Below are positions 1-8,800 of a stretch of DNA of 13,383 nucleotides, in pieces. This stretch comes from Clostridia bacterium. GTDB lineage: Bacteria > Bacillota > Clostridia > Christensenellales > Aristaeellaceae. The stretch is taken from the NCBI GenBank assembly GCA_045599485.1, contig JAZRWA010000117.1:1-13383 (forward strand), written 5' to 3'. Under the pieces are notes generated by a model. It had not been told where the DNA came from, searched no databases, and worked only from the letters and a program-made list of their open reading frames with translations. Positions within the stretch are counted from its first letter, which is position 1. Every line of letters starts with the position of its first letter. A program made the translations under genes and the position numbers.

Positions 1-421
1 CATCGGTGAAGGAGTAGAATGCTTCCTGAATGACGGAAGGGAAAGGGGATGTCTGCTCGTTCAATCCGGACGCGTCATAGGGAACAGGCTGTCCCTCGAA
101 GTACTCGGGGTAAAGAATGGCCAGCGTGACGGTGGGACGAAGGATGCCGGAAGCGAGAAAGTCAGCGGCGGCAGAGGCATCGCTGACAGCAGAGACAGCG
201 GTTTCGCCGTTCAGCGAAGGATAAGTGATACCAATGGTACGGTAGAGTGTGGGGCTGCTGTCGTGATCGACAAAACGAAGTTCCACATTGTTTTCGAACT
301 ACTCGGGAACGATGATACGCATGGTATTCCAGAGGGTGTCACAGACTGAAAGATCCTACGCGAAGGCGGGAGAAGCTGCCAAACAGAACAGCAACAGAAT
401 CAGGAACAGTTTTGTTTTCAT
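1..421 (-). CDS. Secreted hypothetical protein (N-terminal ~140 codons; C-terminus lies beyond the window start), read through two in-frame TAG codons at 356..358 and 299..301
   Basis: ATG at 421..419 is followed by MKTKLFLILLLFCLAASPAFA, a typical Sec signal peptide with an A-x-A site. I checked the same frame (plus-strand triplets starting at position 2) codon by codon. It holds no TAA or TGA down to position 2, only the two TAGs. It is absent from the ORF track because TAG splits it and it is open-ended. No protein family recognised. Confidence 0.5.
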
Positions 422-453
422 ATGAGCCTGCCTTTTTGAGGATGTTGCGGGAA

Positions 454-1962
454 TTAATCGACGGGGTAGGAGTAGCCGAACATGCTGGAAAGATCACGAC
501 ATTTGTCGGGATTGACGTTGGCCGCACGGTTGATCATATCGCCCATGAACCACATGAAGGTGCTTCCGCCGCCGTCCAGATTGAGCGCCTGCGTGCAGCC
601 CATGCCAAGCATGTGGTTGGCGAGCCAACGGAAGGTGCAGCCGTTGGAGGTGGAGATACGTCCCTGTACCAGAACCGCCCAGTAATGGCAGGGTTCAACC
701 ATACCAAGGGCCATGCGCGGGTTTTTGTCGTTGTTAAGCACATTGCTGATGGAAAGGCTTTCGTTGACGATGCCGTCTTCAATGAGGATAGGACCGAAAG
801 CGAACGTATCGGTGACGCCCATCTGCAGGTATTCCTCGGCGGTGAGCTCATCACTGTCATAGACTCGCATGGTGCCGTCGTTGAACAGCGCCAGTACATC
901 AAGCGGCGGGAAGTTTTTGTTGCCCTTGGGTCGGGTGACGGTGGAGATGATCTCGCCGCCGCGGATGATGATGCCTTCGGGCAGTTTGTTATAATGACGG
1001 ATGCCGAAATAGTCGTCGCTGAAGGCAAACAGCGCGTTGTACTGCTTGACAATATCAAAGGGACCGATCAGATTGTAGCCGTCCGCCTTGCGTCCTTTGC
1101 CGAGCATGGCAGAAGGCAGCGAGTTGGGAGTGCAGTAGATTTCTGCTTCGAACCATGTCATCAGGGGGCTCTTGGTGGAGTAACGGCGGATGGCGATGGA
1201 AAGATCATGGCTGATGTAATACCACTGACCGTCATCCCGGTTGGAGTAGGAGAAGGGTTTGGCGGATTCATCCGCCAGGAAGTGCTCCTCATTCAGTTCG
1301 GGAAGTTCCACCTGCTTCTGGGGCCCCTTGGGGGTTGCAGTCACCTTGGGCGTCGGGGTAGGCTTGGGAGTGGGAGACGGCGTAGGGGAAGGCGTGGGCA
1401 GCGTGAAAAGCAGCTCCTGTTCCCCGGCGGTCAGATAGCCGGTCTGCTCGTGACCGAGATACGACTGAAAGGACTTGGTTGCGGTGATCAGGGTCTTGTT
1501 GTAGGTGCCCGCGGTAGCGGTGGAGTTGAAATAGCGCCAGAGGATCAGCTGCTTCTTGGCTGCCAGCACATCATCACCGCTGCATCCGTCATAGAAATCA
1601 CGGTAGCTGTTGCCGGTATATTCGGGCAGCGTAACAGATTCGCCGTTCAAAGCAGCAGAGAGCTTCCGGCTGTAGGCATTATCCGAATAGATCAGCGTTT
1701 GCAGCTCCTGCGTGGCGATACCTGTCTCGGCAAAGCCGCAATCGGATTCAAACTGGCGGATACGCTTTTCGGTATCGGAAGTGAAATCCTCTGTGAACTT
1801 ATTGGAAGTGAAATATCCCAGTTCGTACAGACGCTTTTTAAGCGCTTTGACGTCATCACCGCTGCTGCCGTTTTTGAGGGTACGGTAAGTGCCCTCCGCG
1901 GAGGCAAAGCTCAGAAGGAACAACAGCAGGAAGGTTACGATAAGCAGAATTGTTTTTTTCAT
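454..1962 (-). CDS. Secreted cell-wall-associated protein: signal peptide, two peptidoglycan-binding (PG_binding_1-like) repeats, Pro/Thr linker, C-terminal phosphodiester glycosidase (NAGPA/DUF2233-like) domain
   Basis: 502-aa ORF. N-terminus MKKTILLIVTFLLLFLLSFASA|EG. Two repeats of the G..GDDV..L...L...GY pattern (SSGDDVKALKKRLYELGYF, CSGDDVLAAKKQLILWRYF). TPSPTPSPTPKPTPTPK linker. C-terminal ALNLDGGGSTFMW motif typical of the phosphodiester glycosidase family. TAA stop at 454..456. Confidence 0.85.
   Translation of the reverse strand: MKKTILLIVTFLLLFLLSFASAEGTYRTLKNGSSGDDVKALKKRLYELGYFTSNKFTEDFTSDTEKRIRQFESDCGFAETGIATQELQTLIYSDNAYSRKLSAALNGESVTLPEYTGNSYRDFYDGCSGDDVLAAKKQLILWRYFNSTATAGTYNKTLITATKSFQSYLGHEQTGYLTAGEQELLFTLPTPSPTPSPTPKPTPTPKVTATPKGPQKQVELPELNEEHFLADESAKPFSYSNRDDGQWYYISHDLSIAIRRYSTKSPLMTWFEAEIYCTPNSLPSAMLGKGRKADGYNLIGPFDIVKQYNALFAFSDDYFGIRHYNKLPEGIIIRGGEIISTVTRPKGNKNFPPLDVLALFNDGTMRVYDSDELTAEEYLQMGVTDTFAFGPILIEDGIVNESLSISNVLNNDKNPRMALGMVEPCHYWAVLVQGRISTSNGCTFRWLANHMLGMGCTQALNLDGGGSTFMWFMGDMINRAANVNPDKCRDLSSMFGYSYPVD
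1318..1401 (-). repeat. Low-complexity Pro/Thr-rich linker-coding repeat inside the 454..1962 CDS
   Basis: Encodes LPTPSPTPSPTPKPTPTPKVTATPKGP. On the plus strand this appears as reiterated GG(N)G(T/A)(N) units (ggcgtcggggtaggcttgggagtgggagacggcgtaggggaaggcgtggg). Confidence 0.6.
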
Positions 1963-2067
1963 CTGATTTTTTTCCTAAATCGCATTCGTGCATTTACGAC
2001 AGCACGCCCCGAGCCCGAAAACAAAGCATTTCCGGGCCCGGAGCGGGCAGAAAAAGCATAGAAATAA

Positions 2068-3108
2068 TTATTTGGCGTTTTTGACCTGATCCCAGAAGGT
2101 GTTGTAGAGGCTCAGGGTCTTATCATCCAGGTCGTGATAGAATTCGCAGCGGGCAATCACTTCGTCGGAGGGATTGATGGTCTCGTTTTCGGTATACTCT
2201 TCACCCATCAGATCGATGGCACCCTGGTTGGGGCTGGAGTAGAAGATGTATTCACAGTTCATCTGGGCGATGTCGGGACGGCAGAGGAAGTCGATCAGCT
2301 TCTCGGCGTTTTCCTTGTTCTTGGCATCGGCGGGGATGACGAGGGGATCGATCCAGATGTTGCTGCCTTCCATGGGCACCACATAGTCAAGGTCTTCGTT
2401 GCCGTCCATGGCGTACAGCGCGTCGCCGCTGTACACAACAGCCAGAGCGGCCTCACCCTTGATCATAGCGTCCTTGGTTTCATCCACATAGTAGGCTTTG
2501 ACAAGGGGTTTCTGTTCCAGGAGGGAGTTTTTGGCTTCGTTGAGCTCTTTGATGTCGGCACTGTTGGCGCTGTAGCCATTGACTTTGAGGCCGATCAGCA
2601 TCGCGTCACGCAGAGAGAGCATCATGAAGATCTGGTCGGCATACTGCTCGTCCCAGAGAATCTTCCAGGAGGAGGCGTCCTCAGCGCTCACTTTGGTGGT
2701 ATCGAAGAGGATGCCCAGCGTGCCCCACATGAAGGGGACGGTGAACTTTCCTTCCGGATCGTAGTCGGCATTGCGAAGATCCTCACGGATATAGGCGAAG
2801 TTGGGGATGTTGTCAAAGTTGATCTCCTGAATGAGCTCTTCCTTGATCATGCGCTCTACGCAATAATCGGAAGGTACGACCAAATCGTAGCTGCCGCGGC
2901 TGGTGCGCAGGGCAATCATCATGTCTTCATTTTCGGTAAAGTACATACAGTTGACCTTGATGCCGGTTTCGTCGGTGAACATATCGAGAACGGCGGGATC
3001 CATGTAGTCGTACCAGTTGAAGAGATTGACTACTTCTTCAGCGGATGCGACAGAGAGGAGGGAGATGAGCAGCAGCGCTGCCATGAGCAGGGAAACGAAT
3101 TTTTTCAT
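2068..3108 (-). CDS. potD: Spermidine/putrescine ABC transporter substrate-binding protein
   Basis: 346-aa ORF with a cleavable signal peptide (LLSVASA|EE). PotD-like sequence throughout (NLFNWYDYMDP..., FTVPFMWGTLGI, SNIWIDPLVIP). GGAGG RBS upstream of the ATG at 3108. Last gene of the regulator-potABCD string. TAA stop. Confidence 0.93.
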   Translation of the reverse strand: MKKFVSLLMAALLLISLLSVASAEEVVNLFNWYDYMDPAVLDMFTDETGIKVNCMYFTENEDMMIALRTSRGSYDLVVPSDYCVERMIKEELIQEINFDNIPNFAYIREDLRNADYDPEGKFTVPFMWGTLGILFDTTKVSAEDASSWKILWDEQYADQIFMMLSLRDAMLIGLKVNGYSANSADIKELNEAKNSLLEQKPLVKAYYVDETKDAMIKGEAALAVVYSGDALYAMDGNEDLDYVVPMEGSNIWIDPLVIPADAKNKENAEKLIDFLCRPDIAQMNCEYIFYSSPNQGAIDLMGEEYTENETINPSDEVIARCEFYHDLDDKTLSLYNTFWDQVKNAK

Positions 3109-3157: not shown

Positions 3158-3934
3158 TTATTTTTTTTCGTCTGCTGTCATGGTGCGGCGATTGACAACA
3201 ATCAAAAGTACCAGCATGACAACAAACATGATACTGCTCAGGGCGTACATGGTGGGCTTGATGCCCTTGCGTGCCTGAGAATAAATGAGGGTGGAAAGAT
3301 TCTGCACCAGCGGCGAAGTGGTGAAATAACTGATGGTGAAGTCGTCCAGAGACAGGGTGAACGCGAAAATGGCACCGGTGACCACGCCGGGCATGATCTG
3401 CGGAATGATCACGTGGCGAAGTGCGTAGGACGGTGTTGCACCAAGGTCAAGCGCGGCCTAATACGTGTTCTGATTCATTTGCGACAGCTTTGGCATGACT
3501 GATACGATGACATAGGGGATGTCAAAGGTGATGTGAGCCAGAAGCATCGTGACGTATCCGCGTTCCACTCTCGTGAAGATGAAGAGCAGCATCAGCGAGA
3601 TACCTGTAACAATGTCGGGCATGGTCATGGGAATGTTGTTGAGGGCCAGCATGAGACCCTGCGGACGCTTTTTCATCGCATGGATGCCGATGGCGGCAAG
3701 GGTGCCAAGAAGGGTGGCGAATACCGTAGCCAGAAGAGCGATCGTGACGGTGATGAAAAGTGCCTGCATGATATCGGCATTACCGAACAGTTCACCATAC
3801 CAACGGAAGGAGACGCCTTCAAATTTGGCACGGCTTGTGCCGCTGTTGAAGGAGAAAACGATCATGACGATGATGGGGATGTAAAGCAAAAGCAGCAGCA
3901 GCGCCAGATAGATGCGTTTAAGTGCTTTTGTCAT
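3158..3934 (-). CDS. potC: Spermidine/putrescine ABC transporter permease, full length only if the in-frame TAG at 3458..3460 is read as sense
   Basis: ORF-track pieces 3458..3934 and 3158..3412 share one frame (both starts are 2 mod 3). The stretch between them translates as ...SQMNQNTY-[TAG]-AALDLGATPSYALRHVIIPQIMPGV..., the ABC-permease EAA loop. Total 258 codons, a normal PotC length. ATGA start/stop overlap with potB at 3931..3934. TAA stop at 3158..3160. Confidence 0.85.
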
Positions 3935-4995
3935 ACGGCACCGCCTCCTTCTCCCTCGGGATCGACTTTGCGCAAAATTCCGATGGAAATGAGCATCAAA
4001 ATCATCATGATCAGCGACATGGCGCTGCCGGGGTTCCAGTCGGAGATCGTGGCGGAAAGGAACTTGCTTTCAATCAGATCGCCGAAAAGCTGCACCTTGC
4101 TGCCGCCAAGCAGTCGGCTGATGTAGAAGGTCGTCACAGCGGGCATGAAAACCATGGTAATACCGCTGACCACGCCGGGAATCGAAAGAGGCATGGTGAC
4201 TTTGTAGAACGTCTGCCATTTGTTGCAGCCCAGGTCCATCGCCGCTTCGGAGAGCTTGTAGTCCATTTTGTTAAGGACATTGTAGATAGGGAAAACCATG
4301 AACGGCAGGAAGTTGTAGATCATGCCGAACAGTACGGCACCGGAGGTGTTGAGCAGCTTCAGACGACCAATGCCGATCCATTCGAGGAAGCTGTTGATGA
4401 TACCGTTGCTTTCCATCAGTTCCATCAGTGCGACGGTACGCAGCAGGAAGTTCATCCACATGGGAACGATGAAGAGCACGATCAGTACAGGACCGGCTTT
4501 GAAGCCGCGCTCCGTCATGAAATGCGCTGCAGGGTAACCGAGCAGCAGGCAGGCGACTGTGCACAGGAACGCCATCCACACGGAGAACACAAGCGTGGAA
4601 ATATTGACGGCACCGTAACCGAGGCCGAGGTCTTCGGCGGTGATACCCATTTCGGCATATACGGCAAGGTCATCCGCCATATTTTTGCGGGCCAGATAGT
4701 TGCTGTCCCAGAAAGCGGCGAAATTATCCAGTGTCAGGGCGCCGTTGACATCGGTAAAGGCGTAATAGGCCACCAACAGACACGGAACGACCGTGAAGAT
4801 GATGATCCACAGTACATAGGGGGAAGCGAACAGGGGGCGATTGACGCCGTGATTGTGCTTAACATACCCGGCAACGAGTACAATGAAGCCAATCAGGCCC
4901 AATCCCATCAGCAGATAGGCCCAGATGGGCAGCTCAAACGTTGTCAACTGCGACCGCACCTCCCGCTGCATAGGGATTCCAGTCCTCGGTGGCAT
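3931..4995 (-). CDS. potB: Spermidine/putrescine ABC transporter permease
   Basis: 354-aa ORF, multi-TM, with the EAA loop [28 protein letters not shown]. The true start is more likely the ATG at 4971..4969 (GAGGA about 11 nt upstream) than the one at 4995, which has no RBS. Overlaps the 3' end of potA. TGA stop overlaps the potC start. Confidence 0.9.
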
Positions 4996-6028
4996 GCATG
5001 ATGTGAATGTTGAAGGGGACGATGCTCAGACCAACGCGGCTTCCTTCAGGCTGCATCGTGGTGGAATGCACCTTCCAGGTGGAGTGGCCGGCGTCAATGA
5101 TCATTTCATAATGTACGCCCTTGAACAGTACGCTCTTGACAGTGCCGGTGATCTGACCGATATCTTCGCCCACGACCATGATATCTTCGGGTCGTACAAC
5201 AACATCCACGGGTACATTTTCTCCAAAACCGGAGTCAACACACTGGAAGCGGGTGGAACAGAATTCAACCAGCTCGTCACGGATCATGGTGCCCCGGAAA
5301 ATGTTGGATTCGCCAATGAAGTTGGCGACGAAGGCATTTTTGGGTTCATCGTAAATATCCTTCGGCTTGCCGATCTGAAGGATTTTGCCGCTGCGCATGA
5401 CCACGATGGTATCACTCATGGTCAGGGCTTCTTCCTGATCGTGCGTCACGTACAGGAAGGTGATGCCCAAGCGCTGCTGCATGTTTTTGATCTCCAGCTG
5501 CATGTCCTTGCGGAGCTTGAGATCCAGGGCCCCCAGAGGTTCATCCAGCAGAAGCATTTCGGGCTCGTTGACCAGCGCGCGGGCAATGGCGATGCGCTGC
5601 TGCTGACCGCCGGACAGAGAATCGACATCACGTTTGCCGTATCCCTGAAGGTTGACCAGGTCAAGCATTTTGTTGACTTTTTTATCGATTTCTCCACGGC
5701 TCATTTTTTTGATCTTCAGGCCGAAAGCAATGTTGTCGTGGACGTTCAGATGTGGGAAAAGCGCATACTTCTGAAAAACGGTGTTGACGCGGCGCTTGTA
5801 GGGAGGAAGACCGACGATGTCCTTGCCTTCGAACATGACCTGACCGGAGGTAGGAGACTCGAAGCCGCCGATGATGCGCAGCGTGGTGGTTTTGCCGCAA
5901 CCGGAGGGCCCCAGCAGGGTGACAAATTCCTTTTTGCGGATATAGAGGCTGATATTGTCCAGAACCGTAACGCCGTCATAGTCCTTGCAGAGGTTCTGAA
6001 GATGAATCATATAGGGTGAATCGCTCAT
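4934..6028 (-). CDS. potA: Spermidine/putrescine ABC transporter ATP-binding protein
   Basis: 364 aa. Walker [13 protein letters not shown] signature LSGGQQQR, Walker B LLLDEP, C-terminal TOBE-like regulatory domain. AAGGAG RBS 9 nt upstream of the ATG at 6028. TGA stop. Confidence 0.95.
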
Positions 6029-6052: not shown

Positions 6053-6598
6053 TCAGAAGCTTGGGGGATTGGAGACCCAGATGACTTTGGCAGGGCGTTT
6101 GCCGGTATTGATCAGCCGGTGCGGCGCGGTCGGGTGAATACAGAAGCTGCTGCCGCATTTGACACGGTGCCGCTGCTCGCCGAGCTTGAGCACAACGCTG
6201 CCGGAGAGAACATAACCGAATTCCTCTCCTTCGTGCGGAGGAAGTTCGAAGGACTCTCCTCCGGGACCGATCTAAAGCAGGATGGGTTCCATGTCGTTTT
6301 TCTGAGCGCTGGGTACCAGCCAGACAACGCTGCCCCGGAGTGCTTCTTCATCGGTTTTTTCAAACATGTCGACAGCGTCAAATACAATTTTTTCGTCATC
6401 GTCGTTTTCTGAAAAAAAGGTTTTGAGATCACTGCCGAGGCACTCGAGCATATCAGTCAGCGTAGCAATGGAGGGCGACGCCAGGTCGCGCTCCACCTGC
6501 GAAATGAAGCCTTTGCTCAGTTCACAGCGGTCGGCCATTTCTTCCTGAGTCAGGTTGCGCTGCAAACGCAGACGGTGCAGCTTTTCACCGATGTTCAT
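6053..6598 (-). CDS. XRE-family HTH + cupin transcriptional regulator (PuuR-like architecture), full length only if the in-frame TAG at 6272..6274 is read as sense
   Basis: N-terminal HTH (MNIGEKLHRLRLQRNLTQEEMADRCELSKGFISQVERD). After ...MEPILL-[TAG] the same frame continues IGPGGESFELPPHEGEEFGYVLSGSVVLKLGEQRHRVKCGSSFCIHPTAPHRLINTGKRPAKVIWVSNPPSF, a complete cupin barrel. It ends at TGA 6053..6055, 24 nt before the potA start. 181 codons is the normal length for this family. Confidence 0.85.
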
Positions 6599-7824: not shown

Positions 7825-8800
7825 AATCATCAACGGTTCTGTCACGCTGAGAAGAAATTATGCCGATCTTCCTTTTGACGCGTTGAAAAACAGCGATACC
7901 GCCCTGCCAATCCTGACGCGCGTGACGACGCGGCTGCAGCAGGAAGAAGAGACATGGATCGCACTTCCCGAATCACGCATGGACGAAGAAGGAAAAAGGG
8001 TTTTTCGATTTCTGCGGTTGATCAGCAACGATATTGACGATGCTGTGAATGCACAGCTGTTTGTGCTGAAAGGGGACAGCGCAGCGGTACAGGCCGCGGC
8101 AGCGGATCATGTGGCGGTGACTGTAACTCGTTCTGCTGATGATCTGGAGTTTTCCTATAATAAATGCAAAGATATCATTCGAAAACTGGAGGACAGTCAT
8201 CCCTATGCAAGAACGGGGGAATTAGGTTATCTGACAGCACGCCCCTGCGATGCGGGAAGCGGACTGAGAGCTTCCCTGCTGCTGCATTTGCCAATGCTTC
8301 AATTCTCCCGGCAGCTGCCGATGGCGATGAAGCTTTGCGGAGACAAAGGACTGCTTTTGCGGCCTGAAACCGTAGCGATGCCGGGTCAGGCGCCGGCACT
8401 GTACCTGATATAGAACCGGGTTACCATGGGCAAAACCGATGAGGAGCTGATGACGGCTGTAAAAAAAGGCGCGGAAGTTCTGATAGCACTTGAACGAAAA
8501 CAACGGGAAGAAGCCCGGGTAAAGCAATCGGATGGGCCGCTTGATGCCGTCTATCGTGCGTATGGAGAGGCACGCTATGCCCGCCGATATACACGGGCGG
8601 AATGTGGGGTGCTGTGGTCCAGAATGACGCTGGGGTATTCATTGGGCGTCATGCTGGTGCGTCCGCCGGAGCTGGATAAGCTGTGGAGCATGGCGTTTGA
8701 AAACCAGCGGGAATGGAAGGCCGCGGCGGCTCAGCAGGCAGTCAGCGAGGATGTACTGCGGGCCAGAAAAATCAGAGAATTACTGAGCGGAGGTGCCTGA
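7814..8800 (+). CDS. mcsB: McsB-type protein arginine kinase homologue (divergent), full length only if the in-frame TAG at 8411..8413 is read as sense
   Basis: ORF-track pieces 7814..8413 and 8426..8800 share one frame. The junction reads ...GQAPALYLI-[TAG]-NRVTMGKTDEELMTAV..., matching the conserved McsB ...QISNQxTLGxSE... segment. The phosphagen-kinase signature GYLTARPCDAGSGLRASLLLHLP is present upstream. 328 codons. Sits between mcsA and clpC as expected. TGA stop overlaps the clpC ATG. Confidence 0.85.

Follow-up and report, generated by a model that had tools for sequence, protein, structure and literature searches.

Natural and engineered recoding of UAG

Codon reassignments described in bacteria concern UGA, which is read as Trp or Gly, and the codons CGG, CGA, AGG and ACA (PMC8629427; 10.64898/2026.04.02.715157; PMC13462651). 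According to Shulgina and Eddy, every known bacterial stop change involves UGA (PMC8629427). As a sense codon, UAG has so far been encountered for pyrrolysine, in phages and in eukaryotic nuclei. Here we describe an in-frame TAG in potC, the gene for a spermidine/putrescine ABC permease, on a contig of an uncultured Christensenellales-like lineage (JAZRWA010000117.1, assembly GCA_045599485.1; the whole analysed stretch of 13,383 nucleotides is called the window). Comparison of this gene and of further TAG-containing genes with their relatives makes it likely that UAG is a sense codon in this lineage, with Glu as its most likely meaning, that the potC TAG replaces an ancestral GAG and that PotC is made at full length.

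Several described systems share features with this locus. In the nuclear codes of peritrich ciliates (NCBI table 30) and Blastocrithidia nonstop (table 31), UAR means Glu (PMC12153298). As proposed here, UAG stands for Glu throughout ordinary genes of these organisms, where it is decoded by a cognate tRNA-Glu whose anticodon has mutated; however, these are eukaryotic nuclei with eRF1 in which UAA has been reassigned too, whereas the window is a piece of a bacterial chromosome in which TAG only is concerned and TAA terminates. In TAG-recoded gut phages (“code 15”, crAss-like and Lak phages) UAG means Gln (PMC9523058; 10.1101/2021.08.26.457843). Their in-frame TAGs are likewise read by bacterial ribosomes in gut ecosystems, in their case through suppressor tRNAs, but the recoding affects phage genomes, often late genes only, and hosts with the standard code, in contrast to the chromosomal potABCD and ctsR-mcsAB-clpC genes and the putative Glu of the present lineage. 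UGA is read as Trp under table 4 (Mycoplasmatales and others) and as Gly under table 25 (Absconditabacteria, Gracilibacteria) (PMC8629427, PMC13462651). There, as would be the case here, a stop codon was captured in a bacterial lineage, genome-wide and classically with loss of the matching release factor, yet the codon and factor are UGA and RF2 rather than UAG and release factor 1 (RF1), and the amino acids are others. For archaea, a code in which all TAG codons mean pyrrolysine has been proposed (10.1101/2024.09.30.615893). Pyrrolysine systems also give UAG a sense in a prokaryotic chromosome; unlike the present lineage, with its Glu columns and its alternation with GAG, they need pylTSBCD and centre on methylamine methyltransferases. 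Finally, UAG has been reassigned in genomically recoded, RF1-free E. coli (PMC11903333). In these strains UAG no longer terminates and is read by a tRNA(CUA), as would be the case here; however, they are synthetic, all their genes were cleared of TAG beforehand and the amino acids introduced are usually non-canonical.

The amber codon of potC

The features of potC that concern us are as follows.

3158..3934, minus strand: potC, spermidine/putrescine ABC permease, 258 codons, TAA stop, a single in-frame TAG
3458..3460, minus strand: in-frame TAG of potC, codon 159 (CTA on the plus strand), at the E of the EAA loop
3401..3460, minus strand: EAA coupling loop of PotC, codons 159-178, [TAG]AALDLGATPSYALRHVIIP as read from the translation

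Around the internal stop (asterisk) the translation reads ...MPKLSQMNQNTY*AALDLGATPSYALRHVIIPQIMPGV..., with SQMNQNTY directly before the stop. Set against the pattern EAA-x3-G-x9-I-x-LP, the loop is [TAG]159-A-A-L-D-L-G165-x9-V175-I-I-P178. The rest of the motif is present (AALDLG...VIIP) and its first position is occupied by the TAG, which is Glu only if TAG reads Glu; with Glu inserted, the peptide across the codon would be MNQNTY[E]AALDLGATPSYALR. The Pfam domain BPD_transp_1 (PF00528) matched PotC residues 74-247 (E=1.5e-14) and thus spans the TAG. Two hydrophobic segments of PotC (175-194 and 225-254) both lie downstream of it, in agreement with a preliminary description of this DNA, which had placed the last two transmembrane helices there.

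The same description had located the TAG at the signature Glu of the loop, and this was borne out by homologues. Among the best 120 database homologues (74-98% identity) the column of codon 159 held Glu in 120 of 120 and Q never. In the solved structure of E. coli PotC (PDB 8y5f chain C), which matches the intact homologue P0001 with E=5.6e-48, the loop reads MLEAAKDLGAS and E160 aligns with codon 159 of the window. The E. coli string given earlier (LLEAARDLGA) was right in its Glu and slightly off in other letters.

The closest PotC homologue is P0001 itself, with 98% amino acid identity, encoded on three independent contigs (L001, L002 and L003, from ENA and Logan) with a DNA identity to the window of 89-91%. 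Codon 159 is GAG in all three, one of the two sense codons that the preliminary description had considered for close relatives. Over the whole gene, the window and L001 differ at 74 synonymous and 5 non-synonymous positions; the ratio of non-synonymous to synonymous substitution rates (dN/dS) of potC is 0.016. Of these differences, 23 and 2 fall downstream of the TAG (dN/dS 0.023 at a synonymous divergence, dS, of 0.40), and comparison with the more distant L013 gave dN/dS 0.054 at dS 1.3. Neither a frameshift nor a second stop was found after the TAG when the window was compared with its relatives. Thus potC is not in decay, its downstream part being constrained and uninterrupted. The combination named earlier as adverse to decoding, the same TAG in relatives together with downstream decay of potC, was not seen, the relatives having GAG and the downstream dN/dS being 0.023.

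The TAG could nevertheless be a genuine nonsense mutation or a sequencing error that leaves this copy of potC inactive, which we consider very unlikely. This particular TAG is seen in the window contig only, with GAG in the sister strains, and GAG to TAG is a single G-to-T change. Against such an accident stand the 23 synonymous and 2 non-synonymous downstream differences in a frame free of frameshifts and further stops, and four other in-frame TAGs on the same contig, three of which were confirmed in independent assemblies. Moreover, the second TAG specific to the window, codon 41 of a secreted protein, is likewise derived from GAG. If the cell reads TAG elsewhere, then the potC TAG would be read too. 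A stop of this kind, in frame and at an invariant position of a potC that is otherwise intact and under selection, is no chance feature; the codon is almost certainly translated, and PotC and the PotABCD importer are probably functional.

Conservation of in-frame TAG codons across strains and species

The window contains five in-frame TAGs, distributed over 4 of its 13 genes (potC, a regulator gene, mcsB and the gene of the secreted protein), which corresponds to 1.2 per 1000 codons. All of its 11 complete genes stop at TAA (5 of the 11) or TGA, and none at TAG. The TAG-containing features besides potC are listed here.

6053..6598, minus strand: regulator with XRE-type helix-turn-helix (HTH) and cupin domains, upstream of potABCD, Pfam HTH_3 and Cupin_2, TAG at codon 109
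6272..6274, minus strand: in-frame TAG of the regulator, codon 109; TAG at the same codon in L005, L006, L013 and L091
7814..8800, plus strand: mcsB-like ATP:guanido phosphotransferase, ATP-gua_Ptrans (PF00217) at residues 40-229, across the TAG at codon 200
8411..8413, plus strand: in-frame TAG of mcsB, codon 200; TAG at the same codon in L004, L005, L006 and L097
1..421, minus strand: secreted protein, first 140 codons, with signal peptide; the gene continues beyond the left end of the window
356..358, minus strand: in-frame TAG of the secreted protein, codon 22, first residue after the predicted signal-peptide cleavage site AFA; TAG in L095 and L096
299..301, minus strand: in-frame TAG of the secreted protein, codon 41; GAG in L095 and L096

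In the regulator, the Pfam cupin domain starts exactly at the TAG, that is at the boundary between HTH and cupin. The secreted protein is present at full length (292 amino acids) in L095 (2298-3176) and L096 (2936-3814), with PG_binding_1 at its C-terminus; in L095 this domain (PF01471) spans a further TAG at codon 237. The two TAGs of the window add to four distinct sites in this gene across strains (codons 22, 41, 173 and 237).

The sister strains (L004, L005, L006, L095-L097 and others) show 85-91% DNA identity to the window and were obtained from different samples with different assemblers. Apart from that of potC, 3 of the 4 TAGs of the window recur at the same codons in independent assemblies. 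The codon-200 TAG of mcsB is found in four strains (L004, L005, L006, L097) and in a cluster of seven truncated variants of 195 amino acids; the truncated McsB call of the window itself is present in the protein database as P0121, on an NCBI contig of 13,383 nucleotides, so that the window represents a complete contig. Its gene has a dN/dS of 0.11-0.12 on each side of the TAG. The codon-109 TAG of the regulator is kept in L005 and L006, where the protein encoded by the 72 codons after the TAG is identical to that of the window despite dS values of 0.46-0.80, and codon 22 of the secreted protein is TAG in L095 and L096 as well. The regulator TAG reaches even beyond the sister strains, to a more distant species. 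It occupies the same codon in L013 (7537-7539), the GTDB representative CALCTW010000064.1, and in L091 (4178-4180), from GCA_045628485.1 and syntenic with the window, at 82% identity of PotC, 73% identity of the regulator and dS of about 2.5. Truncated regulator calls of both forms were found on about 12 contigs from NCBI, ENA and Logan.

Across the lineage comparisons, dN/dS downstream of the TAGs was 0-0.17, the same as upstream. Relaxed constraint, frameshifts and extra stops, which would mark pseudogenes, were not observed, with downstream dN/dS of 0.023 for potC, 0 for the regulator and 0.11 for mcsB. The comparison revealed instead what is expected of a variant code: TAG in several unrelated conserved genes, sites conserved under purifying selection and a consistent residue. 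Hence sequencing error, recent nonsense mutation and pseudogenisation do not account for TAGs that recur across strains and species with constrained downstream frames. The preliminary description had argued from potC that TAG is decoded; the conserved TAGs of the regulator, mcsB and the secreted protein, together with three alternations of GAG and TAG between strains, uphold this claim with sites that lie mostly outside the stretch it discussed.

Two other origins of the TAGs were also considered and rejected. Oxidative damage or another sequencing artefact is contradicted by the presence of the same TAGs in MEGAHIT and Logan assemblies from different samples and by the flanks, among which no common sequence motif was found. 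Translation of split genes from internal starts does not fit either, since the regulator has no start codon after its TAG and a split of mcsB or potC would halve a catalytic or a membrane domain. When proteins were compared all against all with X in place of TAG, conserved out-of-frame shadows and intergenic TAGs swamped the result, and the filtered yield was the regulator site of L013 alone.

Conserved TAG codons might have a dual meaning, with RF1 kept and a suppressor tRNA giving partial or conditional read-through, for example to yield both an HTH-only and a full-length regulator. The position of the regulator TAG exactly at the HTH/cupin boundary and its retention over saturated synonymous divergence would suit such a scheme, and the TAG of a surface protein in L091 could be a true terminator. 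We nonetheless regard it as quite improbable. The TAGs within PF00217 of McsB, in the EAA loop of PotC and right after a signal peptide would leave truncated products without use. GAG continues to give way to TAG at constrained sites, at a cost to the cell if the codon were poorly decoded, and no gene ending in TAG was found in the contigs of the lineage. As a separate observation, the regulator TAG has not drifted to GAG or GAA over this saturated divergence, which may reflect chance retention or a function of the codon.

The surface protein of L091 carries SH3_3 repeats and has about 1640 amino acids (L091 12124-17082; L013 15484-20412; P0305-P0308), and its repeat number varies between strains. 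The TAG in L091 lies inside an extra segment of about 390 nucleotides. In a third strain the gene is split into parts of 375 and 1343 amino acids at a position where the repeat consensus is Tyr.

TAG as a terminator was tallied in related genomes as well. It ends 0 of 11 genes in the window and none of about 13-16 each in L013 and L007, and in metagenome-assembled genomes (MAGs) of related Christensenellales and Clostridia (L014-L037) it ends about 14 of 323 gene calls (~4%). The calls for these tallies are from a crude gene finder based on codon usage, which overlooked mcsA and mcsB and produced one gene that is probably false.

Further observations concern the two other TAG-containing genes. 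McsB of the window belongs to a divergent subfamily with LENRVT(L/M)G in place of the canonical (I/V)SNQ(V/I)TLG, the syntenic L091 having the canonical type, and the rate of evolution of McsA and McsB (dN/dS ~0.11 or higher) is much above that of the pot genes here. In public gene calls, the unannotated secreted protein appears only as a middle fragment of 139 amino acids or is replaced by an antisense open reading frame (ORF) of 259 amino acids without a Pfam match.

The decoded residue and its putative decoder

Which amino acid is inserted was approached through the codons and residues that replace TAG in relatives. Three TAG sites vary between strains, potC 159, mcsA 125 and codon 41 of the secreted protein, and all three alternate with GAG. 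At mcsA 125, the window, L004, L005 and L097 have GAG, and L006 and another variant have TAG. Weighed against the usage of the eight sense codons one step from TAG, GAG at 3 of 3 sites has p ~0.0065. Moreover, 6 of the 9 distinct TAG sites aligned with Glu (p ~8e-6, Glu being 7% of codons). At mcsB 200, E is present in 17 of the 18 homologues that share its LENR subfamily. For the secreted protein, the only distant intact homologue (P0296, 41% identity) has E at columns 22, 41 and 237, the alignment of codon 22 adjoining a gap of three residues. The preliminary description had proposed Glu or a close substitute such as Gln; the first of these is favoured by the alternation with GAG and by the columns, and the second is disfavoured.

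The case for Gln deserves to be set out in full. UAG would then be read by a tRNA-Gln(CUA), or by a near-cognate tRNA-Gln after loss of RF1, and PotC would carry Q in place of the Glu of its EAA loop. Phages that reassign amber usually do so to Gln, and near-cognate tRNAs commonly insert Gln at UAG when RF1 is missing. Among relatives of the regulator with a sense codon at the TAG column, the closest have Q, the TAG of the L091 surface protein pairs with Q of a paralogous repeat and one McsB of the LENR type has Q. However, the strain alternations are GAG/TAG in 3 of 3 cases and CAG/TAG in none, Gln would require an E-to-Q change at a motif residue that is invariant in PotC (E in 120/120) in a gene with dN/dS 0.016, the McsB column is E in 17/18, and P0296 has E at 3 of the 4 TAG columns of the secreted protein. 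On balance Gln seems unlikely.

Pyrrolysine, as in Firmicutes that use it or in the proposed archaeal code with TAG meaning pyrrolysine throughout, is the only established route to a UAG sense codon in bacterial chromosomes (10.1101/2024.09.30.615893). Yet TAG occupies an acidic motif residue that is invariant, the codon with which it alternates is specifically GAG, the columns are Glu in 6 of 9 cases and Lys in 0 of 9, and neither a methylamine methyltransferase nor a pyl gene was found in the 13 kb window or the contigs of its relatives. We therefore hold this explanation to be extremely improbable.

Several observations weigh against UAG as a Glu codon in this lineage. The potC TAG itself is known from the window contig alone. 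Codon 173 of the secreted protein aligns with H of P0296, beside an indel, and the TAG of the L091 surface protein aligns with Q in the paralogous repeat. Residues vary in the column of the regulator TAG (E 59, S 18, D 12 and Q 10 among the best 120 homologues), and its nearest relatives with a sense codon have Q, N or S. ARAGORN found no tRNA gene on the window or the contigs of the lineage, and prfA is not on the lineage contigs at hand, which are contigs and not complete genomes. A screen of about 2.7 million NCBI assemblies reported no such code (10.64898/2026.04.02.715157). In addition, the missing TAG terminators are weak evidence for reassignment, because TAG ends only ~4% of the gene calls in related MAGs.

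Other searches for the decoder were also negative. On 44 loci ARAGORN found no tRNA with a CUA anticodon, its only hits being tRNA-Ser(GGA) and tRNA-Arg(ACG) in distant MAGs, and Rfam gave no match on the window and four related loci. A guessed pattern for the anticodon arm of tRNA-Glu(CUA), CACCGCCCTCTAACGGCGGTA, had no match in JGI metagenomes. The lineage itself was missing from the GTDB species representatives and from the JGI metagenomes when these were scanned with the mcsB N-terminus.

The mechanism that we propose for the Glu code is as follows. A tRNA with a CUA anticodon would be charged with Glu, and RF1 would be lost or weakened. The simplest source of such a tRNA would be tRNA-Glu(CUC) with a C36-to-A change, accepted by a GluRS tolerant at position 36. 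Non-discriminating GluRS enzymes accept C36 and G36, and a tRNA-Glu(CUC) with A36 is thus a plausible one-step origin. If the tRNA body were of the Gln type instead, GatCAB would convert the product to Gln. The rarity of TAG terminators across the order (~4%) may have lowered the cost of RF1 loss and could have been a pre-adaptation for amber capture. On a wider scale, we lean towards a genome-wide UAG=Glu code, with a tRNA(CUA) derived from tRNA-Glu and with RF1 lost, in a clade of gut and rumen Clostridia near Christensenellales that comprises at least two species-level lineages.

The named genomes that come nearest by PotC (74-83%) are MAGs from rumen and gut, which carry the labels Clostridia, Christensenellales or Christensenellaceae. 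In lineages at similar distance (L007-L010 and L092-L094, 13-20 kb each) no in-frame TAG was found, and their regulators are intact. Judging by these loci, the reassignment may be confined to a clade of the window lineage, L013 and L091, or else the other lineages may just use TAG less often.

The searchable literature yielded no description of UAG as a Glu codon in bacteria, nor of any code change in Christensenellales. If true, this would be the first bacterial chromosome in which a stop that is not UGA has been given to a standard amino acid, and outside eukaryotes the first case of UAG=Glu. The lineage would represent a free-living natural counterpart of RF1-free E. coli, implying that amber capture is possible in bacterial chromosomes where TAG stops are already rare, and would be a source of a natural tRNA(CUA)/GluRS pair and of a release-factor configuration for study. 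A host that reads TAG as sense would also be a different target for phages with the standard code and for TAG-recoded phages. The gene calls that public databases give for these organisms are wrong, as PotC, McsB, the regulator and the secreted protein are stored truncated and one call is an antisense ORF in place of the gene.

The window is a Firmicutes-type piece of chromosome with 53% G+C. It encodes the secreted peptidoglycan-binding protein, a NAGPA protein, potDCBA, the XRE-cupin regulator, ctsR-mcsA-mcsB-clpC, a metallophosphoesterase and a pyrimidine-nucleoside phosphorylase. The genes potA-potB-potC-potD are contiguous on the minus strand, and this synteny is kept in L007, L013, L091 and L092. 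Further features are given below.

4934..6028, minus strand: potA, ATPase, uninterrupted, TGA stop
3931..4995, minus strand: potB, uninterrupted, EAA loop LSEAAMDLG, TGA stop
2068..3108, minus strand: potD, binding protein, uninterrupted, TAA stop
454..1962, minus strand: NAGPA/PG_binding gene, Pfam NAGPA and PG_binding_1

The translations thus confirmed the LSEAAMDLG of potB and the intact state of potA, potB and potD noted earlier. At its longest, the potB ORF shares 62 nucleotides with the end of potA (4934..4995); a later ATG at 4971 is the likelier start and the N-terminus of PotB is uncertain. A plus-strand ORF at 412..2061 (549 amino acids, ending in TAG) was rejected as a gene, as it is an antisense shadow of the NAGPA/PG_binding gene and has no Pfam match of its own. 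Just past the left end of the window, the sister strain L095 carries a gene for a SCIFF peptide (PF13165) and the start of a putative radical-SAM maturase (3311-4072).

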